From Kiritimatiellia bacterium (lineage in GTDB: Bacteria > Verrucomicrobiota > Kiritimatiellia > JAQICX01), in NCBI GenBank assembly GCA_027858345.1, contig JAQICX010000069.1, forward strand, positions 5,222-69,221: DNA of 64,000 nucleotides. Direction: 5' to 3'. A program made the position numbers and the translations under genes. How positions within the stretch are numbered: the stretch's first letter is position 1; each line of letters begins with the position of its first letter. Under the pieces are notes generated by a model. That model saw only the letters and a program-made list of their open reading frames with translations. It made no database searches and was not told where the DNA came from. Positions 3,908 to 64,000 of the stretch are shown in pieces.

Positions 3908-6178
3908 ATGAACGAACAACATATAGTCACAATCGCAACAGAACTAAAAATTGCACCACAAAAAATTATAGCTACCCTGAAGCTGATGGAAGAAGGCGCA
4001 ACGATTCCATTTATTTCAAGATACAGAAAAGAGGTAACCGGTAATCTTGATGAAGTTCAACTTGCAGACATTCGTCAACGCCATGACCAACTTGAAGCTC
4101 TCGACAGCCGCAAAGATGCAATCATTAAGTCTCTTAATGAACGGGAGCTGCTGACAGACGAACTACGTGTTGCCATTGCGGGCGCAGAAACACTAACATC
4201 TCTTGAGGACATCTACCTTCCATACAGACCTAAACGTCGCACACGTGCAACAATTGCAAAAGAAAAAGGTCTGGAACCACTTGCAAAAATCATTTTAGAA
4301 CAAAGCAATGAAACCATCCCAGAAACTGCTGCTGCAGAATATATCAACACTGAAAAAAAGGTTAACACCATTGAAGAAGCTCTAGCTGGAGCAAGAGATA
4401 TTATTGCAGAGACCATAAATGAAGATAAAGACGTTCGTCAAATTATTAGAGATTTCTTTGCAAAGAACTCTGTGATTAAATCGAAGGTACAAAAAGGTAA
4501 AGAAGATGCTGGTGAAAAATTCAAGGATTACTTTGAATGGTCAGAATCAATTTCAGATGCCCCAAGTCATAGGGCACTTGCAATGTTCAGAGGCGAAAAA
4601 GTGGGTATACTTTCTTTATATATTCGTCCATCCGATGACGAAGCAATTCAATTGATAATCAGAAAAGTTATTACTTCATCAAACAAGACAACAGAACAGA
4701 TGGAACTGGCTGTTAAAGACTGCTACTCTCGCCTGCTTTCAACATCAATGGAAGTTGAAACAAGAATGCACCTCAGGGAACGTGCGGACGATGAAGCAAT
4801 CAAAGTTTTTGTTAAAAACATCAAAGAGCTTCTAATGGAATCAGCACTGGGACAAAAAGCTGTTTTAGCAATTGACCCAGGATTCAGAACCGGTTCAAAG
4901 GTTGTATGTTTGGACAAACAGGGCAAACTACTTTTCAACAACGTCATCTATATCAGCAAGTCACCAAGAGAACTTGCTGAAGCTGTGGAGGTCATACCGA
5001 ATCTTGTTAAGCATTTTAAGATTGAGGCAATTGCAATTGGTAACGGCACCGGCGGCAGAGAAACAGAGAAATTTGTTCGTTCACTTCCGATAGCAAAAGA
5101 GCTTGAAGCAATTGTAATGGTTAATGAAAGCGGTGCTTCAATATACTCAGCATCAAAAGAGGCTAGAGAAGAATTTCCGGATCAAGATGTAACAGTTAGA
5201 GGTGCAGTGTCAATTGGTCGAAGACTGATGGATCCTCTGGCAGAACTTGTTAAAATTGATCCAAAATCAATTGGTGTCGGACAATATCAGCACGATGTTG
5301 ATCAAAACAAACTGAAATCAAGTCTTGATGTATCAGTTATGTCATGTGTTAACAATGTTGGGGTTGAAATCAATACAGCAAGTAAACAACTTCTATCATA
5401 TGTTTCAGGTTTGGGTCCGTCGCTTGCTCTGAACATCGTCAACTACAGAAATGAAAATGGACCTTTTAAATCTCGAAAAGAAATCAAAAAAGTTTCAAAG
5501 CTTGGGGAGAAGACCTTTGAACAATGTGCAGGTTTCCTGCGTATTATAAGTGCAGAAAACCCACTTGATTCCAGCGGTGTGCATCCTGAAAGTTACTCAA
5601 TTGTTCAACAAATGGCAAAAGATAAAGGTGTTGAAATAAAAGATCTAATTGGTGAAAACAATGAGATAACAAAATCTATTGACCTTAAACAATACGTTAC
5701 AGACCAAATTGGTCTGCCAACTCTTAACGATATCATCAAGGAACTTGCAAAACCGGGGCGTGATCCACGTAAGAAATTTGAAGCTTTTGCATATGAAGAA
5801 ACAGTTCAAAAGATGGAAGACCTTACACCAGGAATGAAACTACCAGGTATTGTGACAAACGTAACAAATTTTGGTGCTTTTGTTGATATTGGTGTTCATC
5901 AAGACGGACTGGTTCATATCAGTGAAATCGCAGACCATTATGTTTCGAACCCGGCAGATATTTTGAAGGTTCATCAAAAAGTTGAAGTTACAGTAATGGA
6001 GATTGATCAGAAGCGCAAGAGAATTTCTCTTTCACTAAAGAAGAATCCCGGCGAAAGACCAAGTTCTGCAAGTAAGAACAAGCCAAACGGTGGACAACAG
6101 TCTTCAAAACGTGACAACAAATCCAGAGCATCTAATAAGCCGGCATTTAACTCTAACCCATTTGCTGATTTGCTATAA
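3908..6178 (+). CDS. tex: Tex-family transcription accessory protein (YqgF-like, HhH and S1 RNA-binding domains)
   Basis: 756 aa. N-terminus reads IATELKIAPQKIIATLKLMEEGATIPFISRYRKEVTG. The C-terminal S1 domain reads GMKLPGIVTNVTNFGAFVDIGVHQDGLVHISE. A basic tail follows. Confidence 0.9.
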   Translation: MNEQHIVTIATELKIAPQKIIATLKLMEEGATIPFISRYRKEVTGNLDEVQLADIRQRHDQLEALDSRKDAIIKSLNERELLTDELRVAIAGAETLTSLEDIYLPYRPKRRTRATIAKEKGLEPLAKIILEQSNETIPETAAAEYINTEKKVNTIEEALAGARDIIAETINEDKDVRQIIRDFFAKNSVIKSKVQKGKEDAGEKFKDYFEWSESISDAPSHRALAMFRGEKVGILSLYIRPSDDEAIQLIIRKVITSSNKTTEQMELAVKDCYSRLLSTSMEVETRMHLRERADDEAIKVFVKNIKELLMESALGQKAVLAIDPGFRTGSKVVCLDKQGKLLFNNVIYISKSPRELAEAVEVIPNLVKHFKIEAIAIGNGTGGRETEKFVRSLPIAKELEAIVMVNESGASIYSASKEAREEFPDQDVTVRGAVSIGRRLMDPLAELVKIDPKSIGVGQYQHDVDQNKLKSSLDVSVMSCVNNVGVEINTASKQLLSYVSGLGPSLALNIVNYRNENGPFKSRKEIKKVSKLGEKTFEQCAGFLRIISAENPLDSSGVHPESYSIVQQMAKDKGVEIKDLIGENNEITKSIDLKQYVTDQIGLPTLNDIIKELAKPGRDPRKKFEAFAYEETVQKMEDLTPGMKLPGIVTNVTNFGAFVDIGVHQDGLVHISEIADHYVSNPADILKVHQKVEVTVMEIDQKRKRISLSLKKNPGERPSSASKNKPNGGQQSSKRDNKSRASNKPAFNSNPFADLL

Positions 6179-6266
6179 AGTGATTCTTTTCCGAGTCAGG
6201 GGAAACCAGCAGAGAGCGACAACGGTCACCTGCGTGACGGCATGAGAAACGTTATCATAGCTATAG

Positions 6267-6384
6267 CCAACCGAAAAAAAAGAACTCCCTTAGTTTTTTG
6301 GTTGGAGATAAAACATGCGTTTGAGCTAATGAAATTAGCAGAAAATACATTTTTCACAAATCTATGGGTAATAAATTTGAAAAT
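6267..6384 (+). repeat. ~120-bp intergenic repeat, copy 1 (CCAACCGAAAAA hairpin plus conserved tail)
   Basis: Hairpin CCAACCGAAAAAA...TTTTTTGGTTGG (6267..6305), then ATGCGTTTGAGCTAATGAAATTAGCAGAAAA...TGGGTAATAAATTTGAAAAT. Aligns by eye with 6555..6677. Confidence 0.85.
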
Positions 6385-6554
6385 ATATAATGACAATGAG
6401 GAATAGGCCATTCACTACGTTCATTGCTTCACCCTATTGTTTCTTTTTAGTGGTTAAAGCCTCTCTCGCAAGCTCGAGGGTCGCTCCCGTTTTTCCAAGA
6501 CAACGTGTATTTGCATGCTGGGAGGGTCAGCGTCCCCGCTGACAGAAAAGCTAT

Positions 6555-6677
6555 CCAACCGAAAAATAGAGAACTATAGCCTTGATTTTTCGGTTGGAGT
6601 GGATAATATGCGTTTGAGCTAATAAAATTAGCAGAAAACACATTTTTTATCAGCAAATGGGTGATAAAGTTGAAAAT
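6555..6677 (+). repeat. ~120-bp intergenic repeat, copy 2
   Basis: Perfect 13-bp stem CCAACCGAAAAAT...ATTTTTCGGTTGG, then ATGCGTTTGAGCTAATAAAATTAGCAGAAAA...TGGGTGATAAAGTTGAAAAT. Confidence 0.85.
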
Positions 6678-6688
6678 TTTATTTAAAA

Positions 6689-6789
6689 GGCGGGGTGAAG
6701 CACCCCGACCCTACAAAACACCTGCGAATCAACCTTTTAGCTTTGGTTGCAGCATCCGCACCTGTAGGGTCGGGGTCCGTGACCCCGCC
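6689..6789. repeat. REPIN-like inverted doublet of a GTAG-headed GC hairpin (family 2)
   Basis: 6689..6715 is GGCGGGGTGAAGCACCCCGACCCTACA. 6763..6789 is TGTAGGGTCGGGGTCCGTGACCCCGCC. The heads face inward. Each unit is its own 6-bp hairpin (GGGGTG/CACCCC versus GGGGTC/GACCCC), which amounts to a compensatory change. Confidence 0.85.
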
Positions 6790-6800
6790 GAAAAGGGCAT

Positions 6801-6835
6801 TCAACCGAAAAAATGAGGACATTGGGTGATAAATT
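6801..6835 (+). repeat. ~120-bp intergenic repeat, internally deleted copy 3
   Basis: TCAACCGAAAAAATGAGGACATTGGGTGATAAATT keeps only the two ends of the unit. Confidence 0.6.
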
Positions 6836-6910
6836 ATTTTGTTATTGTGTTTTCATATTTAAAAGTTTATTCTACTCAAATATTATTTTTTTAAACAACT
6901 AGGAACCATA

Positions 6911-8122
6911 ATGAAGAAACATATACTGACTAAAACGATTTTTTTTATACTACTGGTAATTTTCACACTACTTTGGTTGGTTAATCTTGAATTTGCCATT
7001 AAGCTTTTCATTCCAGATTTGGCAATTCTTTTAAAATATATTCCTGCAAACATACACAAACTTTTGGAGACGTTATCATCAGACCTTAGTACAGTAACAA
7101 CACTGATACCAGCTTTAATCTGTCTGTTTCCAATTATTTCATTGAATAAATTACAAAAAAGTAGAGATACAGAGATTTCCGAAACATTCCCCTACCCTGA
7201 AAATTTTCCCTTCTTTTTGGTTATGCTTGGTCTTGCAGGCACACTATATGGACTGTTGATTGGTCTTGACTCAAGCGGGCTTACAACTCTTGGAACAGAT
7301 GCAACCGGTGCACCTGAAATTAGAGAAACAATAGATAGATTACTTGATGGTACAGCCACGGCCCTACTAAGTTCTCTTGTAGGTATTATTGGTGCATTTA
7401 TTGTTGTAAAGCCAATCCCAATGATTTTTCATGGACTTCTTGGAATAAAGGAGAACGACGAAGATGATATTGAACAGGTAATCCACAACCTTACAATACA
7501 ATTCAACAACCTAAATAAAGTTGTCGAAGATTTTTCAACCACAATTGAGAAATATAACGACACGAACATTCCTCAAAGTGTACAAAACATTGAAAAAGCA
7601 TTTTTCAAGCTTTTGGAACAGCAAAGCATTAATACAGAATTTCTCCAGCACATACACAAACAACAGGAGTTAACCAACAAATTGCTTGAACCTCTGGCCA
7701 ACTTGGAAAAGCTTGCCATTCTGTCTCAAATTTATGATAAGATTGGCAAACTAGACAAACTGGATAATATCAATGATAAACTGGACAGACTTGTTACGCT
7801 TGAAAAGATCGACACGAATCAAACAGAACAACTGGAACTTTCAAAACTAAACAACACTCTTGTAACAGAACAAACAGAGTCAGCTCAAGCACTTAAAGCT
7901 TCAGTTGAAAAAATACCTGCTGTTATTACACAAATACTTAAACAAGACAAAGAATTTCATGACAAGACAGAAACCACTAATTCAGAAATTCTCAACAATA
8001 TTATTGATAATGGGAATAAAAACAAAGCAATCATTGATGTACTAAAAGATTCTAATACAGATAAAGAAAAACAGAGAAACAAAATACTTAAGAACATCAA
8101 GACATATATTGACTCATTTTAA
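6911..8122 (+). CDS. membrane protein with a MotA/TolQ/ExbB-like channel domain and a ~215-aa coiled-coil C-terminal tail
   Basis: 403 aa with an AGGAA RBS 8 nt upstream. About 4 TM helices. FLVMLGLAGTLYGLLIGL and RLLDGTATALLSSLVGIIGAFIVVKPIP resemble the two signature helices of MotA/ExbB/TolQ. Residues ~185-403 are charged and helix-prone (KLDKLDNINDKLDRLVTLEKID). Confidence 0.5.
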   Translation: MKKHILTKTIFFILLVIFTLLWLVNLEFAIKLFIPDLAILLKYIPANIHKLLETLSSDLSTVTTLIPALICLFPIISLNKLQKSRDTEISETFPYPENFPFFLVMLGLAGTLYGLLIGLDSSGLTTLGTDATGAPEIRETIDRLLDGTATALLSSLVGIIGAFIVVKPIPMIFHGLLGIKENDEDDIEQVIHNLTIQFNNLNKVVEDFSTTIEKYNDTNIPQSVQNIEKAFFKLLEQQSINTEFLQHIHKQQELTNKLLEPLANLEKLAILSQIYDKIGKLDKLDNINDKLDRLVTLEKIDTNQTEQLELSKLNNTLVTEQTESAQALKASVEKIPAVITQILKQDKEFHDKTETTNSEILNNIIDNGNKNKAIIDVLKDSNTDKEKQRNKILKNIKTYIDSF

Positions 8123-8433
8123 GATTAAGGTAGAGGTTAAGATTGAGAACTCGCTACGCTCGTTGTGATAAGTGATAAGCAGGAAGTTATAAATTTCTTC
8201 CAGCCGTCGCTCTTAGAGCTATTGCGGACAGAACGGAGGACATGTAGCTCATGATGTTATGACAAAAAGGCGAGTGTTTCATGCAAAATTTGTTTTTCCG
8301 TGCCGGGCAATGCGGCTACAGTTAGAAAAAGTGGTTTAATGTTGAGATGCCGAATCGCGTATGTAGCCAAGATTCGTGGGTTCTGACAAATTGTGACAAA
8401 GCAAATAAAAAGATTTAAAGAATAAAAAATAAG

Positions 8434-9189
8434 ATGAGAAAGAAATCAAAACTAAATATACTGCTTGCAGGAAAAAAGAAAAAGCATGGTTTTGCACTTA
8501 ATGCTAATGATGCATTAGTTCAGATATCACTACCACTCGTTCTGATTCTGGCAATAGCAACAAGGCTAATGGTTGTTGGTCAACAGATGGCTGATGAACA
8601 ACAGGGGCCCAAAATTCTTGATATCTGGAAACAGCAACTGATTTTAAGAATTGACTCACTTATGAACGATTGGGAGAAGGAGAGTTTTTATAACAAATTT
8701 AACAATGCAAGCGATATTACATGGCTAGACTCCTTTCCCAACGATAAATATCTGCAAACTCTTTGCAAGAACAGCAAAATATTAGATGACATTCCAAGCG
8801 TTAGCACAAACTTCTACATTGAAGCACTGACCTATCAACCCACATCTCTTGAAACGAATGACACATCTGGCTCTTTAACTGTTTTATACGATTCAGAACT
8901 ATCTGAAATCCCGGAAGATATTGAACAAGAATATATAATCAATCCTAGTCACAGAAAATATGCAATTGAACACATTCAAAAAAGATGCCTAATGTGGAAA
9001 ACAAAAATAGAAAATCTGGAATGGGATATAATTGCTAATATTGCAGCAAAACAGCCAATTGAAGATGTAGAGGTCACAGATCAGGAACTAGCTGCACAAA
9101 TGCAGAAAATTGCATATGCTTTGAGAATCAGGAATTATCCAATCTTAAACAGCATCAAATCAGAATACGGCACCACTGCCGAGAATTAA
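8434..9189 (+). CDS. single-pass membrane protein, candidate MotB/ExbD/TolR-type partner; function unknown
   Basis: 251 aa. A basic N-terminus is followed by NDALVQISLPLVLILAIATRLMVV, one TM helix with an Asp at its cytoplasmic edge. I recognised no OmpA-like motif in the remainder. Confidence 0.35.
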   Translation: MRKKSKLNILLAGKKKKHGFALNANDALVQISLPLVLILAIATRLMVVGQQMADEQQGPKILDIWKQQLILRIDSLMNDWEKESFYNKFNNASDITWLDSFPNDKYLQTLCKNSKILDDIPSVSTNFYIEALTYQPTSLETNDTSGSLTVLYDSELSEIPEDIEQEYIINPSHRKYAIEHIQKRCLMWKTKIENLEWDIIANIAAKQPIEDVEVTDQELAAQMQKIAYALRIRNYPILNSIKSEYGTTAEN

Positions 9190-36144: not shown

Positions 36145-36382
36145 ACCTTTTATATTCCCCTTAAATATTCTTTCTCATCATTACATCAAAAAAAACTTCA
36201 TTGTTTATACCATTTATCCAATGCAAACGCAAGAATAACTTTAACAGATGACTCTTTTCCTTGATTTTTCGGTTGAACGTAGTTATGACAACGAGGATCC
36301 CGCATTCCGGGACTCCCAACATGCAAACAACCGTTGTCTTGGAAAAACGGGAGCGGCAATGTCCTCATTGCCATAAAATAAT

Positions 36383-36476
36383 ATTTTTCACTTTATCACC
36401 CAAAAAAGTAAAAGTTGAAATTTTAATGCTTGATTTTGTTGGCTCAAACAGATGTTTTCTTGTCCAACCGAAAAAC
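36383..36476 (-). repeat. ~120-bp intergenic repeat, copy 4 (inverted)
   Basis: ATTTTTCACTTTATCACCCA...TTGGCTCAAACAGAT...TCCAACCGAAAAAC matches the reverse complement of 6555..6677. A further fragment CTTGATTTTTCGGTTGA lies at 36260..36276. Confidence 0.7.
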
Positions 36477-36517
36477 TGAGGCTCTTTTCCTAACTTTTTA
36501 AGTGAAATGCCCTTTTC

Positions 36518-36652
36518 GGCGGGGTGAAGCACCTGTCCATTCCTCCTTCGCTGTTCCAGACTACGAGCTGACATGAAAGTTGAGAATGCTGAAACAAAAG
36601 CTAAATGTATGGTCTACGGGCGTTTTGTAGGGTCGGGGTGCTTCACCCCTCC
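36518..36652. repeat. second family-2 REP-like pair (left unit truncated)
   Basis: GGCGGGGTGAAGCACC at 36518..36533. TGTAGGGTCGGGGTGCTTCACCCCTCC at 36626..36652. The second is near-identical to the 6.7-kb units. Confidence 0.75.
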
Positions 36653-36834
36653 TTTACCCAACACTATGTCATGCGAAGCTTGCTGTATCCTGCGTAGCTC
36701 TTCGCGAAAATGGTTAAAAAAAAAGAAAACTAACTCCCTAATCTCAGTGCCGTAAAATCAACTTGTTACTGCTGACCAAAAACTAAGGATTAATAAGAAA
36801 AACCAAGAAAAGACGAAAAAAAACATTTTAACAT

Positions 36835-58844: not shown

Positions 58845-58942
58845 GGCAAATCCAGCTATTCCTTCCTCTTTCCTTCTTCCTAGGCGAAGCCTATTCCTTG
58901 CGAAGCTATTCCTTCTTCTTTCCTGCTGGCAAAGCCTACTAC
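58845..58942. repeat. degenerate ~17-nt tandem array in a pyrimidine-rich tract
   Basis: GGCAAATCCAGCTATTCCTTCC, GGCGAAGCCTATTCCTT, GCGAAGCTATTCCTT and GGCAAAGCCTACTAC. The last unit overlaps the stop of the giant ORF. Confidence 0.65.
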
Positions 58943-61900
58943 TGAATCTGATTAGCAATTTCCTTAAAATATTCCCTAACAAGAGCACGATATTCAGGAG
59001 GAACATTATCATAAACACCTTCCGATATTATACCACTCTTCAAACCACCCCTAATCTTTTCCCAATCCTCAAGTGTAAAACCAAGATTCTTCAAAAGTTC
59101 AGGATCAATAACGCCGGTCTCAACTTTCTCAGGCTTGTTCTGAGGATTATTACTGTCAGAACTTTGCTGACTATCGCTCTGTTGTTGAGACTTCTGCTGA
59201 GACGGAGGCTGAGGTTGATTCATACTAGCCATTGACTGCATCTGCTGCTGAGTCATTCCCAACTGCTGTGCCTGTTGCTGCATCATCTGACTCAATGCCT
59301 GTGCTGCTTGTTGAGCAGCCATCATGGCTGCTTGAGCTTCCTGCATTGCTGCTTCCGCTTGAGCCGTCGCCTTTTGAGCTTCCGCTTGTGTCTGCTGAGC
59401 TGATTGCTGTGCCGCTTTTGCCTCGGTTTGTGCCTGTGCCGCTGCTGCCTGAGATGCTTGTGCTGCTGCTGTTGCTTCTTCAGAAGGAGACTCAGCCGCT
59501 GCTTCCATAGCTGCTTGAGATTCGGCTTGTGCTGAAGCTGCTTCGGCTTGTGCCTCATTTGCTGCTGCTTGAGTCTCAGCGGCGGCTGACTGTGCTTCGG
59601 CGGCGGCTTGTGTTTCCGGTTGTCCTTCCAATGTCGCCTGAGCATCAGCCATTGCCCGTGTTGCTTCCGCTTGGGCCGCTGCCGCTTCTTCCTGAGATGC
59701 GGATGCCTCGGCTTGTGCTGTAGCTGCTTCTTCCGGCGATGCACCCATAGCTTCAGCTTGAGCAGCCTGGGCATCAGTCATAGCTTCCAGTGCTTCTGAT
59801 TGAGCTTGCTGGGCTTGAGCCTGAGCCTGTGCTGCCTGTGATGGTTCCATATTTGCCATCTCCATTGCATTCTCAGCTGTCATTGCAGCCTCCATGGCCG
59901 CATCCATAGCTGTCTCCATAGCAGTCTGTTGATCAGCGTTCATTGAACTTTCCTGCTGAGCTGCAATTTGTTTATCCAGCTCTGAAATTTGTTGTTCCAA
60001 AGCACTTTTAGACTCTTCCAAACCTTTGCTTACATCAGATAAAGCATCAGCAGCTTTTTCTTGCTGACCTTGCATAGCAGCCTGTTCTTCAGGAGTAGCT
60101 TCTGAACCTTGTTCTTGAGCCCCCTGCTCTTGCGCAGCAGACTGTTCATCTTGTGCACCCTGTTCACCATTTTCTTGTGCTGAATCAGGTTGTTCTGAAA
60201 TATCTGAAGCCATATCTGTTGCTTTTTCTGTCTCACCTTGAGCTTTATCAGCCAAGTCAGAAACCTTTTCATCAGCATCATTTAAAGCCTGATTATCTGT
60301 GAGTATATCACCAATTGTTTCAAGCTCTTTTGCATCTTTTGCCAATTCTTCTGCTTTTTCTCTAACAGCTTCCTGAGCTTTTGTCATTGCTTCATCAAAA
60401 TCACCTTCTTCAGCAGCTTTTTTAGCTTCTTCAAATTTCTCGGAACCATCATTAGATAAACCATCCTCAATAGCTTCACTTAGAGTTTCCATTTTCTCTT
60501 CTTTTGTGGCTTCCGCAAGTTTATCCTGCAAACCAGAAAGTTCTTCTGCATCTTTTGCCAATTCTTCTGTTGCTTCTTTCACTTCAGCGAGTTTGTCTCT
60601 TATAGCCTCTGGATTTCCACTTTCTAAAACATCGCTTAGCTCTTCTGCAATATCTTTTTGATCTTCTACCCAGTCTTCATCAAACATTTCACCTGATTCC
60701 AATATCTCTTCAGCATCAGCAGCTAAATCTTCTTGCTTATTAGCCAACTCCTCAGCCTTTATCCATTCTTCAACAATTTTATCAAGTTCCTCTAACTCTA
60801 AAAATAAATTTTTGAGCAGCATAATTGAGTCTTCAAGTGATGTACGAAGCTTTCTACCCATAGCCTTCTTATCATCTTTATCAAGCATAACAATCATTTC
60901 TGCACTCTCTTTGGCCACAGCGATTCCTTTAGTCTGAACGTTTTGAACACCTTCAATCAGTTCTTTGTAAGCAGTGTCACCCAACACTGAAACCAAATCA
61001 TCCAACATACCATTTGCAATTGACAACTCACTTGCAACATCTGTTGAATCTTCATCTACCTTTATGTAATCAGGGCGTTCCTCGGACATCTCAACATTAA
61101 TTGCTTTTGTATCCACAACTGCATCCTCTAACCTCTGCAAAACATTCTCCAGAATCTTCGTTATGGCTTCTTGTTGCAGATCATAGGACTGACGAGACAA
61201 AGACTCTGCTGACTTATCAATCGTAATTGTGATAGGCTCACTGGTTCCAATCTGTGGCCCGCCAAGCTCGATTGGCAGTGCATCTGCAACACAAACTTTA
61301 ATAGTTAAACTTGATGTGTTTTTTAAATTGAATTTCAACAAATCAAAACGAACATTTCCACTCCAGATACCTTCCTTATCTTTTTCTTTAACAAGCTTCT
61401 TTAAAGGATGAACAACAGGCTCATTATTGTCTTTTGTAACCTCAAGAAATGCATTTGTTAAACCATAGTCATCAAAACCAAAATAGTTTATAACAAAACG
61501 ACCATTAGGACTTAAAGTCAGATCTTTGTTAATTGGTCTGAAAATGTCAACCGTTGGTGGCAAATCAGGAATACTCACAATAGAATAAACCTTTGGCGTG
61601 TTCTTAAACTTAAAATGATCTTCAATATTAATTTCCCATTTATCATTAATATTATTAGGAACGTCAAAATCAGCTATTAATCTTATTTGACTTGTATAGG
61701 TCAAATTTGTTTCTGGAAGCTGAACTCCTCCAATAACAATTTTTGCAGTATTAATTGGCTTACTAAGTTTTGCATTAATTCTAACTTTAGTGCCGTTTAC
61801 AACACTTATATTACCAGATGAATTAGTATTAATAACGCTTCCCAAACCTGTATATTTAGGATAACTATAAATTAAATCTAATAAATCTATCTGTGGTGGT

Positions 61901-62814
61901 ATTTCAGCAAACACCTCATATTTTTCTGTAACACTATGCCCCGCATGTATACTATATCTAAATCCATCATTAACTTGAGGAATAGATATCTTAAAAACCT
62001 TAACATTCTCATTTTCTTCTGCTTCTGAGTCAACAACTGATTCAACCATTCGCTCTTTCATAAGTTTGCCGTTTTTTGCAAACTTAATCATATATGCCGT
62101 GTTAATCTTGGGACTGGATGTTTTAACAATAATGTTTAAAGGATCTCCAACTATCATTCGTATATTGCCTGGTTCAACATCAATGCTGTCAGAAAAAAAA
62201 CTTCCAACATCTGAAGCAGGTGCCATAACTCTTGTCATCAACCTTAAAGTTCTTAGAGGCCAGATTGCCGTTAAAACAACAATAAACCCCACAACACATC
62301 CAGCTGCAATAAACCATGGCTTAACTGATTTTGTGTTTATCTCTTGGCGTGGTTTAACATTGCTCGCATCAAATGTAGCTTCCTCTGCCAACTGATCAAT
62401 CAAACGCTGTGAACCAAAATCACTTGAACCCTTATCAATCCGACACAACTCAACAATTGAACTCATTCTTTCCTGAAGCTCTGGATGCCTCAATTCAACA
62501 AAACGAGCAACTCTTGTCAGTGTAAACGGCTGTGTAAGAGGCTTATATAGATAAAAATATAGTGCTATTAAAAATGATACTAAAACCAGCGAACTTAACC
62601 CCCACCTGTATATGGGAGAAATAATTATTGTTGCTGCATCAATTCCCATTACAATCAAAATTGAAACAACTACAACTGCAAGAACTGCAAGCGAACCTCG
62701 AATCCATAAAATTAATTTAATTCGTTCAATCAGTTCTGTCAAACTCTTAACAATAGACTCTGGTAACTTAGTATAATCAACATTTGCATTATTTTCTTTT
62801 AGCTTAGCTTTCAT
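58939..62814 (-). CDS. giant membrane protein, DUF4175-like (BatA-cluster type) with an acidic coiled-coil and Ala/Gln/Glu low-complexity tail
   Basis: The track ORF starts at 62850. The MKAKLKE start at 62814 removes the overlap with the upstream gene. Has 3 TM helices and the FVELRHPELQERMSSIVEL motif. A beta-rich middle is followed by several hundred residues of E/D/K coiled coil and AQAEA-type repeats. The conserved end reads NVPPEYRALVREYFKEI. Confidence 0.6.
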   Translation of the reverse strand: MKAKLKENNANVDYTKLPESIVKSLTELIERIKLILWIRGSLAVLAVVVVSILIVMGIDAATIIISPIYRWGLSSLVLVSFLIALYFYLYKPLTQPFTLTRVARFVELRHPELQERMSSIVELCRIDKGSSDFGSQRLIDQLAEEATFDASNVKPRQEINTKSVKPWFIAAGCVVGFIVVLTAIWPLRTLRLMTRVMAPASDVGSFFSDSIDVEPGNIRMIVGDPLNIIVKTSSPKINTAYMIKFAKNGKLMKERMVESVVDSEAEENENVKVFKISIPQVNDGFRYSIHAGHSVTEKYEVFAEIPPQIDLLDLIYSYPKYTGLGSVINTNSSGNISVVNGTKVRINAKLSKPINTAKIVIGGVQLPETNLTYTSQIRLIADFDVPNNINDKWEINIEDHFKFKNTPKVYSIVSIPDLPPTVDIFRPINKDLTLSPNGRFVINYFGFDDYGLTNAFLEVTKDNNEPVVHPLKKLVKEKDKEGIWSGNVRFDLLKFNLKNTSSLTIKVCVADALPIELGGPQIGTSEPITITIDKSAESLSRQSYDLQQEAITKILENVLQRLEDAVVDTKAINVEMSEERPDYIKVDEDSTDVASELSIANGMLDDLVSVLGDTAYKELIEGVQNVQTKGIAVAKESAEMIVMLDKDDKKAMGRKLRTSLEDSIMLLKNLFLELEELDKIVEEWIKAEELANKQEDLAADAEEILESGEMFDEDWVEDQKDIAEELSDVLESGNPEAIRDKLAEVKEATEELAKDAEELSGLQDKLAEATKEEKMETLSEAIEDGLSNDGSEKFEEAKKAAEEGDFDEAMTKAQEAVREKAEELAKDAKELETIGDILTDNQALNDADEKVSDLADKAQGETEKATDMASDISEQPDSAQENGEQGAQDEQSAAQEQGAQEQGSEATPEEQAAMQGQQEKAADALSDVSKGLEESKSALEQQISELDKQIAAQQESSMNADQQTAMETAMDAAMEAAMTAENAMEMANMEPSQAAQAQAQAQQAQSEALEAMTDAQAAQAEAMGASPEEAATAQAEASASQEEAAAAQAEATRAMADAQATLEGQPETQAAAEAQSAAAETQAAANEAQAEAASAQAESQAAMEAAAESPSEEATAAAQASQAAAAQAQTEAKAAQQSAQQTQAEAQKATAQAEAAMQEAQAAMMAAQQAAQALSQMMQQQAQQLGMTQQQMQSMASMNQPQPPSQQKSQQQSDSQQSSDSNNPQNKPEKVETGVIDPELLKNLGFTLEDWEKIRGGLKSGIISEGVYDNVPPEYRALVREYFKEIANQIQ

Positions 62815-62816
62815 AA

Positions 62817-64000
62817 TTATGCCAAACCTCCTTTTTTCCTGTAAAACCATTCAAATCCAATAATAATTCCCATCAAAATAAATAGCGGCCACTTATCCCA
62901 AAGTGTCTTCTCCTGAATCAAAACTTCTTCCCTGTTGCCTTCACCAAAAAGACTATCAGCATTCATAATATCCGTTGGTGTTAAAAGCTTACCTCCTGTG
63001 GTTGCAGCAATCTTTGCAGGCCACGTTGGGTCTGCATTCATAACGGATCTCTCAATAGGGTTGTCCAATGTCTTAACGGCAATAATTGTGTCAATATCTT
63101 TGGCCGAGCCATCTTCTCTTAATTCATCAATAACATCACCAGTCAATGTTATTGTGTAATATCCAGATGCATCTGCTGCCTTAAAATCTAAATCATAATA
63201 TCCATTTGAATCTTCTCGATAATCAAACTCTTTTCGCAGAATTGTCTGTCCGTTAAACTTTACTGTTGCGCCAAACTTTTTCTTATTCACACCGCTAAAT
63301 GATTTATCAATCAGGCGTGAAACAACTTTTACAGTATCTCCAGGAGAATAAACAAGTTTATCAGTGCCAAGTCTTACATGCTCACCACCTGAACGCAAGT
63401 TTTCTCCAGCTCCCCAGCGCATCATCTGTCCCCAGAACTTATGGTGATACACATCTCCAACGCCATAACGCCAACGCCATGTCCGATCAAAAGGCAGCAT
63501 AACAACTGTACCCTGTCCATATCTCTGGACAACAACAAGTGCATTGTGTGTTTCCTGTTCCAATCGTTGTTCCAAATAACGTTCCTGCTCTTCCTGTGTT
63601 GCAGAAAAGTCCATTCCATCGTCTTCTCCAGGCTGCGCATAAGCAAGAACACTAGCACCAGGCTTCAACGACTCAACAGAAAAACGCCAACGCATAACAG
63701 GCAAAGAAGCCCAAATCTCATCATTCTCGGCTGAACTTTCAGACTGCTGCATAATTGGATGTTCACGCCCGGCTGCAGTTAGCTTAATTCTATAATCTTT
63801 CTCAGGTGACTTAAACTGTGGCCTTGATTGATTCTCATATATAATCGGCAACAATGCCTTTAAATCTTCATTCTCATAGTGATGAGGCATATATCTTGGA
63901 CCAGCACTGACCACAAGTAACGCACCTCGTTCCTCAACACACTTCTTGATTTCTGCAATCACTCGATCACTCAAATCTTCTGGGGCAACATCACCAAGAA
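62817..64000 (-). CDS. C-terminal part of an envelope protein with a C-terminal TM anchor (BatA/vWA-cluster neighbour type); 5' end lies beyond the window
   Basis: The reading frame stays open to position 64000 (upstream codons read LGDVAPED before the TTG listed in the track). Ends with WDKWPLFILMGIIIGFEWFYRKKGG. Confidence 0.5.
   Translation of the reverse strand, partial: LGDVAPEDLSDRVIAEIKKCVEERGALLVVSAGPRYMPHHYENEDLKALLPIIYENQSRPQFKSPEKDYRIKLTAAGREHPIMQQSESSAENDEIWASLPVMRWRFSVESLKPGASVLAYAQPGEDDGMDFSATQEEQERYLEQRLEQETHNALVVVQRYGQGTVVMLPFDRTWRWRYGVGDVYHHKFWGQMMRWGAGENLRSGGEHVRLGTDKLVYSPGDTVKVVSRLIDKSFSGVNKKKFGATVKFNGQTILRKEFDYREDSNGYYDLDFKAADASGYYTITLTGDVIDELREDGSAKDIDTIIAVKTLDNPIERSVMNADPTWPAKIAATTGGKLLTPTDIMNADSLFGEGNREEVLIQEKTLWDKWPLFILMGIIIGFEWFYRKKGGLA

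Follow-up and report, generated by a model that had tools for sequence, protein, structure and literature searches.

The subject of this report is a pair of neighbouring genes, A and B, in a 64,000-nucleotide stretch of DNA from a Kiritimatiellia bacterium (assembly GCA_027858345.1, contig JAQICX010000069.1, positions 5,222 to 69,221 of the forward strand), hereafter called the window, whose numbering is used throughout unless another locus is named. Gene A encodes a protein with four transmembrane (TM) helices and a cytoplasmic tail, and gene B encodes a single-pass membrane protein (Table 1). An initial annotation, made from the sequence, had described an orphan pair resembling the stator proteins MotA/ExbB and MotB/ExbD, and both of its open reading frames (ORFs) were recovered with the same positions and sequences. 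We favor the reading, with a probability of about 0.6, that A and B are the core, within the inner membrane, of a branch of the 5:2 ion-driven rotary motors (MotAB, ExbBD, TolQR, ZorAB) that has not been described before, is restricted to bacteria of the Planctomycetes-Verrucomicrobia-Chlamydiae (PVC) group and is nearest to type II ZorAB.

Table 1. Coordinates of the A-B locus and of the partner region in close relatives (loci L005, L006, L055 and L057)
Feature	Position	Strand	Description
Leader of gene A	6838..6910	+	conserved, promoter-proximal; only upstream DNA common to relatives
Gene A	6911..8122	+	ORF, 403 residues; predicted ZorA-like channel/rotor subunit, four TM helices and cytoplasmic coiled-coil tail
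A TM3, residues 99-121	7205..7273	+	glycine zipper G107-x-x-G110-T111-x-x-G114; T111 (codon 7241-7243), predicted filter threonine
A TM4, residues 134-166	7310..7408	+	GTATALLSSL; S154-S155 doublet, codons 7370-7375
A tail, residues 185-403	7463..8119	+	cytoplasmic, helical, heptad-like; conserved C-terminal tip motif
311-bp insertion between A and B	8123..8433	.	lineage-specific; in relatives the genes are 6 bp apart or overlap by 4 bp
Gene B	8434..9189	+	ORF, 251 residues; putative MotB/ZorB-like single-pass axle subunit
B TM helix, residues 24-49	8503..8580	+	N25-D26 at cytoplasmic entrance; D26 codon 8509-8511
B periplasmic domain, residues 55-251	8596..9186	+	alpha/beta; no known fold matched; not OmpA-like
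Region with X and C' after A-B	L005 12127-14910; L006 2594-5335; L055 2491-5268; L057 2018-4801		

Proteins A and B

Hydropathy analysis (Kyte-Doolittle; segments 3-41, 58-81, 98-121 and 147-179) and the AlphaFold2 model (helices 2-31, 61-83, 99-121 and 134-166) both give four TM helices for A, the number estimated at the outset. The charge pattern fits the positive-inside rule, with the N-terminus in, the loop 120-146 (net charge -4) out and the tail in, and the loop between TM2 and TM3 is about 15-20 residues long. TM3 and TM4, the two signature helices quoted in the initial annotation, are the best-conserved stretch of the A family, in which F102-L108, G110-L115, L144, L145, G147, T148, T150, A151, L153-L156, G158, G161-F163 and P168 are invariant. 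Counted over 48 sequences, G107, T111 and G114 on TM3 and T150 and S154 on TM4 are each present in all 48, and position 155 is Ser in 46 and Thr in two. The 219-residue tail holds three Pro, two Gly and 29% charged residues, has a hydrophobic periodicity of 3.5-3.6, and is modeled as long helices (187-215, 222-285 and 293-402), in agreement with its earlier description as Pro/Gly-poor, charged and heptad-like. Its length varies by indels across the family, though the tip is conserved, with a nearly invariant R389.

Scans of full-length A against Pfam and NCBIfam gave no match, and the full-length A profile returned only coiled-coil noise from the PDB, a problem solved by trimming the profile to the TM core. 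PADLOC model PDLC00635 (ZorA2) matches A with E=2.9e-12, the start of the profile aligning with A from residue 61 on, and relatives of A match ZorA models too. The TM-core profile has four significant matches in the PDB, all of them Escherichia coli ZorA (EcZorA) constructs (8qyh, 8qyy, 8qyk and 8qyd; E=1.4e-3 to 1.5e-2; A 97-159 on ZorA 133-188), and ZorA is the only family matched there. Within the profile alignment, A residues 99-121 lie on EcZorA 133-162, Thr111 corresponds to EcZorA Thr147 and Ser155 to Ser184; according to the Zorya structure paper, Thr147 and Ser184 are the ion-selectivity filter that contacts Asp26 of ZorB. Pairwise alignment with hhalign places A 109-176 on TolQ 124-186, which is TolQ TM2-TM3 (P=1.2e-3), and gives no significant alignment of A with MotA. 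In Foldseek searches with the monomer model of A, the top places go to ZorA of types I and II (probability 0.82-0.99), ahead of TolQ and ExbB; the superposition on 8qyy_A has a root-mean-square deviation of 3.3 A over 76 columns, the query being a monomer model with a mean predicted local distance difference test (pLDDT) score of 66.

The initial annotation had proposed a MotA/ExbB-type channel with a ZorA-like tail, and this was borne out by the PADLOC match, the TM-core profile, the TolQ alignment and the Foldseek ranking; profile and structure searches did not place residues ~90-185 outside the MotA/ExbB fold. The assignment of A as a channel subunit of the MotA/ExbB/TolQ/ZorA type, closest to ZorA, is thus supported. 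In our reading, A corresponds to a ZorA-like body of type II with one extra N-terminal TM helix added and the membrane-proximal cytoplasmic domain missing.

Protein B has, as first described, a basic N-terminus (net charge +8), a single hydrophobic segment (24-53) and Asp26 at its cytoplasmic end, a position that corresponds to the essential Asp26 of ZorB. The initial annotation had let its case depend on conservation of this residue, which is Asp in 43, Glu in two and Asn in one of 46 sequences (acidic in 45 of the 46) and invariant in a core alignment of 30 sequences. Two further positions of the helix are nearly as constant, Q30 in 46/46 and P34 in 45/46. The periplasmic domain is modeled by AlphaFold2 with pLDDT mostly above 90, and Foldseek finds no match to the B model in the PDB (best E=3.2) or BFVD (best E=0.53). 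Because a confident model is without an analogue in either database, the domain is not considered an OmpA-like peptidoglycan-binding domain, in keeping with the earlier failure to see such a motif; Pfam, NCBIfam, the B-profile search of the PDB and Foldseek were all negative for it. Neither did Pfam, NCBIfam, PADLOC (ZorB models included) or the PDB profile search match B in any other way, and hhalign of B against TolR and against MotB was not significant. Residues W65, K66, Q67, R72, W80, P102, D104, R184, W188 and W197 of the periplasmic domain are invariant. Four points speak for B as the axle subunit: its adjacency to A, its N-in single-pass topology, the conserved acidic residue and the matching polar ring on A.

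Three deep-branching relatives stand out at the Asp position of B. It is Glu in the B-like protein of L058 (1991-2788) and Asn in that of L062 (7512-8444), whereas the TM region of the L060 protein (4532-5470) has no unambiguous alignment. Ion coupling may be different in these branches, or missing. Proteins with tetratricopeptide repeats (TPR) or SH3 domains are encoded near these loci.

Family, operon and third gene

At 90% identity, the A family comprises 119 clusters and the B family 112 clusters, drawn from the same taxa. The named members all belong to Lentisphaerae, Kiritimatiellota or Verrucomicrobia/Opitutales and are all annotated as 'hypothetical', and no paper describing the family was found in the literature. 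A scan of 185,579 species-representative genomes yielded 42 loci, all from PVC bacteria, the closest being that of an uncultured Victivallales bacterium (75% identity); a metagenome scan for close relatives of the window pair yielded three loci. When the TM-core profile was run against 1.84 billion representative proteins (exhaustive HMMER search), only 160 clusters were matched at E<=1e-3.

Annotation of all loci with hidden Markov models (HMMs) shows that A and B co-occur everywhere and are always adjacent, as the initial annotation had required of its pair. It had also suggested that gene-neighborhood analysis might reveal a conserved third partner, and the family does have one, an exported protein, C. 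In 34 PVC loci (Kiritimatiellia, Opitutales and Lentisphaerae), counted after dereplication, A, B and C follow one another directly and are translationally coupled; A/B and B/C alike most often overlap by 4 bp. Pairwise distances among the three proteins co-vary (r=0.92-0.95), and A-like, B-like and C-like genes also stand in a row in the three deep-branching relatives named above. Protein C is 750-800 residues long, and every C opens with a short signal peptide of the Sec type, after which comes a conserved DPK..AK..LA.RAAA motif. It has no relative in Pfam, PADLOC or the PDB, and its profile found at least two matches in a database of 5.8 billion proteins. The periplasmic head of B and protein C are classified here as two new protein families. 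Clustering of the neighbors revealed no fourth conserved gene, only antisense shadow ORFs and synteny internal to the Opitutales.

Eight Opitutales loci (L004, L016, L018, L022, L027, L028, L036 and L043) have the same neighbors around A-B-C, with genes for a TonB-dependent receptor and an AP_endonuc_2-like protein lying 3 kb and 1 kb upstream, respectively, and one for a major facilitator superfamily transporter downstream. This constancy points to long-term vertical inheritance at one chromosomal site. An apparent 1065-residue B-C fusion in L011 (8044-11241), which would have served as Rosetta-stone evidence, was rejected as an artefact, since the two ORFs are bridged by a masked run of N (X in the translation).

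The closest relatives of the window pair (L005-L007, L009, L055 and L057; 70-77% identity) have the order A-B-X-C' instead of A-B-C. X is a conserved ORF of 133-143 codons, and C' is a protein of ~775 residues whose N-terminal part is cytoplasmic and is followed by a long coiled coil, a TM helix and, at the C-terminus, an OmpA domain (PF00691). No homology between C and C' was detected by blastp, and tblastn and relaxed HMM searches found none of C, C' and X in the window. The word 'orphan' in the initial annotation therefore holds for the window, but not for the family, in which C, or X together with C', is a conserved partner. The window arrangement recurs on an independent metagenome contig (L054) and is thus not an assembly artefact.

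Both window genes are full length and keep every family-invariant residue. With dN of ~0.14-0.18 (~0.14 for B), saturated dS, and dN/dS of ~0.07-0.13 where it could be estimated, the comparison of coding sequences indicates that A and B are under purifying selection.

DNA homology to the relatives extends only from ~70 bp upstream of A through the B stop codon. Upstream, blastn matches 6838-6905 to the DNA just before A in L056 and L005; a promoter-like site at 6858-6886 is a consensus match only, and the promoter and terminator scan performed no better than on shuffled sequence. The pair had been called an accessory insertion, a view that fits the limited extent of the homology but not the base composition of the region, which is not anomalous. 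Between the genes, the alignment with L005, L006 and L009 ends precisely at the A stop and resumes at the B start. The 311-bp insertion found there, which occurs nowhere else in the window or the loci, has a somewhat higher GC content than the DNA around it, and has no Rfam match, no significant RNA fold (z=0.26) and no notable ORF. In L056 a different insertion, of 273 bp, occupies the same junction. The palindrome GGGAGGGTCAGCGTCCCCGCTGACA occurs inside the L056 insertion (4081-4113) and again in the window spacer upstream of A (6518-6550). The shared palindrome and the junction insertions imply that small elements resembling repetitive extragenic palindromes (REP) or miniature inverted-repeat transposable elements (MITE) colonize intergenic sites in this clade, and the pattern suggests that such mobile elements repeatedly target the A/B operon junction.

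The spacers upstream of A, between A and B, and in third place measure 732, 311 and 286 bp, as first reported. All three had been called repeat-laden, which is correct only for the 732-bp spacer; in the other two no repeat reached significance, and Rfam matched none of the spacers. The 732-bp spacer (6179-6910) contains a ~293-bp tandem duplication with 73-nt cores at 6312-6384 and 6605-6677 (84% identity) and hairpins CCAACCGAAAAA...TTTTTCGGTTGG. Related copies at 36313-36655 of the window and at 19303-19386 of L005 make it look like a clade-specific dispersed intergenic repeat. A GC-rich inverted repeat upstream of A (6689-6715 / 6763-6789; 27-nt arms, 89% complementary, 47 nt apart) could be the terminator of the upstream unit or part of a repeat element.

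The polysaccharide-export locus reported next to the pair is real and lies downstream of B, with genes for Polysacc_synt_2 (CapD), ManC, Poly_export (Wza) and Wzz/GNVR; the rest of the window consists of housekeeping genes. The initial annotation had listed no Tol-Pal, Ton, flagellar, gliding or Zorya effector genes in the 64 kb. For the part that was searched this stands: tblastn found no TolQ, TolR, TolA, TolB (N-terminal part), ExbD, MotA or MotB (ExbB, TonB, Pal, GldK-N and other flagellar genes were not queried), and PADLOC found no Zor effector among 44 window proteins. At 58939-62850 on the minus strand, the window encodes a 1303-residue membrane protein with a long Ala/Gln/Glu-rich low-complexity region; both the strong AT skew and the peak in GC (0.52) at 59-60 kb trace to this region.

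The putative motor and its alternatives

If A and B form a motor core, five A subunits with four TM helices each would surround a B dimer. TM3 and TM4 of A, with the GxxGTxxG zipper and the LSSL motif, would present a polar ring of Thr111, Ser154 and Ser155, to which each B helix would offer its Asp26. Ion flow at the Asp26 site would rotate the A pentamer, together with its ~220-residue coiled-coil tail, relative to the B dimer, and the tail would serve as a cytoplasmic output or input. Exported C may be the periplasmic partner or anchor of B, which has no OmpA-like peptidoglycan anchor of its own; in the Victivallales subclade, the OmpA protein C', which replaces C together with X, is a plausible peptidoglycan anchor in trans. 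The window holds the A-B cassette alone beside the exopolysaccharide (EPS) locus, with A uncoupled from B by the 311-bp insertion. Because both genes are intact and under purifying selection, the core is most likely still functional, its partner genes being located elsewhere. Our best guess for the output is envelope-linked mechanical work or signaling, not nuclease defense of the Zorya type.

The Na+ site of PomA consists of T158, within a GxxGxxxG zipper, T185 and T186. EcZorA has been assigned as proton-driven, and it has Gly before Ser184, where A has Ser154. Since the three-hydroxyl constellation of A (T111/S154/S155) equals T158/T185/T186 of PomA, the coupling ion of A and B is, by analogy, possibly Na+.

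A wider proposal, which we advance tentatively and think somewhat more apt to fail than to hold, is that A-B-C is a separate class of envelope motor, PVC-specific and neither Zorya, Tol/Ton, flagellar nor gliding. Such a motor would be ZorA-like, 5:2 and probably Na+-driven, and its new-fold B axle would dock exported C, not peptidoglycan. It would connect the pentameric tail in the cytoplasm with a structure in the periplasm. If this is true, the motor core is modular and its periplasmic partners can be swapped, being C, X with an OmpA protein, or none nearby.

Several results weigh against the assignment of A and B as a motor core. The Pfam family that the initial annotation had named as the check on A, PF01618 (MotA_ExbB), was detected in 0/20 family TM cores even at E<=1. 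The AlphaFold2 model of A is of moderate quality (mean pLDDT 66), and every Foldseek E-value for A exceeds 1e-3. B has no significant sequence or structure link to MotB, TolR, ExbD or ZorB; the L062 homologue has Asn at the Asp position, and the L060 alignment of this region is uncertain. With C, X and C' missing from the window, function there depends on unseen partners. Lastly, occurrence in 42 species-representative genomes is a patchy-looking distribution that also fits an accessory or defense role.

That last point keeps in contention a divergent Zorya-type anti-phage system, in which A5B2 would sense envelope perturbation and the A tail would signal to an effector, either C or one acting in trans. 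ZorA is indeed the closest known relative of A and has the tail architecture in common with it, the conserved tail-tip motif of A suggests a docking site, and toxin-antitoxin or phospholipase D (PLD) genes adjoin some loci. Against this, Zorya types I and II cannot do without a peptidoglycan-binding domain in ZorB and B has none, PADLOC models of ZorC, ZorD and ZorE match nothing (ZorF and ZorG were not checked separately), and C is exported, not cytosolic, and has no nuclease signature. The genomic context points the same way. The 138 proteins flanking ~38 loci fall into 118 Pfam families, mostly of transport, metabolism and envelope housekeeping; PADLOC found only scattered singletons and no Zor effector among them, and the neighbors are not enriched for defense genes. 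No copy of the family was found on the plasmids, phages and viral contigs searched, and the stable Opitutales synteny argues for vertical inheritance. This context argues against A-B-C being a classical defense system and gives no support to the role of defense trigger that had been put forward initially, by effectors, defense-island neighbors or mobile copies; we consider a Zorya-type function unlikely.

The second role first put forward, in which the pair energizes polysaccharide export or the movement of a surface adhesin, appears improbable. It draws on the CapD, ManC, Wza and Wzz genes downstream in the window and on a few other loci, with exosortase and glycosyltransferase family 4 (GT4) genes upstream in L001, NfrA_C-TPR and GT2 genes downstream in L008, and genes for a formyltransferase and a large multi-TM protein downstream in L005. 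Yet glycan genes are a small minority across lineages (Polysacc_synt_2 twice and GT1 twice among the 138 proteins), PVC genomes are generally rich in them, and the adjacency to EPS genes in the window comes from relocation of the cassette. The cross-lineage context thus does not support this role.

It is equally doubtful that the window pair is a decaying, non-functional remnant, one that lost C or C' and whose operon the 311-bp insertion broke up. In favor of decay, the 64 kb holds none of C, X and C', the insertion has ended the coupling of A and B in translation that relatives show, and its spacer has no clear promoter. Against it, A and B are full length with every family-invariant residue, dN is ~0.14-0.18 with dS saturated, a second sample (L054) has the identical arrangement, and an insertion of different sequence is tolerated at this junction in L056.

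The motor-core assignment, if right, bears on a wider question. Each 5:2 motor family so far (Mot, Exb, Tol, Gld, Zor) has shown a different route from ion flow to work or signaling across the envelope. Among the searches made here, the A-B family is the nearest non-Zorya relative of ZorA. Its axle head differs and an exported protein serves as its dedicated partner, so that it could reveal the task of a ZorA-type tail outside defense and the way in which a B subunit finds its anchor when it has no peptidoglycan-binding domain. Experiments are feasible because members of the family are present in marine Opitutales, which are abundant, and in two Kiritimatiellota strains in culture (B12222, with locus tags P3T73_13505/10/15, and B1221). 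Neither B nor C has an entry in Pfam, NCBIfam or PADLOC; with both defined as families, annotation would become better and defense finders would be spared false 'partial Zorya' calls.

Comparison with known motors

Like PomA and MotA, A has four TM helices with both termini in, and B, like their partners, has an Asp at the entrance of its TM helix. The likeness is closest to Na+-type PomA (T158, T185 and T186), with the GxxGTxxG zipper on TM3 of A and two adjacent hydroxyl residues on TM4. In MotAB and PomAB, a large TM2-TM3 loop contacts FliG, and MotB has a plug and a peptidoglycan-binding domain. Unlike MotA, A has no large cytoplasmic torque-generating loop, only ~15 residues separating TM2 from TM3, and unlike MotB, B has neither plug nor peptidoglycan-binding domain.

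The TM3-TM4 hairpin of A aligns with TolQ TM2-TM3, and TolQ and ExbB are structural neighbors of A. Unlike them, A has a long cytoplasmic tail and no PF01618 match, and B has no detectable similarity to TolR. The three-gene logic of a motor with an elongated periplasmic third protein is also that of the Tol and Ton systems; C, unlike TolA and TonB, has a signal peptide of the cleavable type, no N-terminal membrane anchor and no TolA or TonB domain. The TonB-dependent receptors near Opitutales A-B-C loci reflect clade synteny only.

Type II ZorAB, for which S. kujiense and E. coli ATCC 8739 served in the comparison (PDB 8vvi and 8qyd), remains the nearest system. The A-B family is set apart from it by an extra N-terminal TM helix in A (four TM helices, N-terminus in, versus three in ZorA), by the lack of a membrane-proximal cytoplasmic domain or Ca2+ site in A, and by a novel periplasmic domain in B in place of the OmpA-like peptidoglycan-binding domain. 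Beyond the pair, no effector matches ZorC, ZorD or ZorE, the conserved third gene encodes an exported protein, the family is PVC-restricted and its context is not defense-like. Type II ZorA is compact, its rod starting from about residue 110 (residues 110-378 in S. kujiense), and the tail of A, initially called much shorter than that of ZorA, is so when compared with type I but comparable to the type II rod. As in ZorAB, the compact TM core of A leads directly into a long C-terminal helical tail, its Thr111 and Ser155 stand where EcZorA has the filter residues Thr147 and Ser184, B crosses the membrane once with Asp26 at the entrance of its helix, and the two genes lie side by side.

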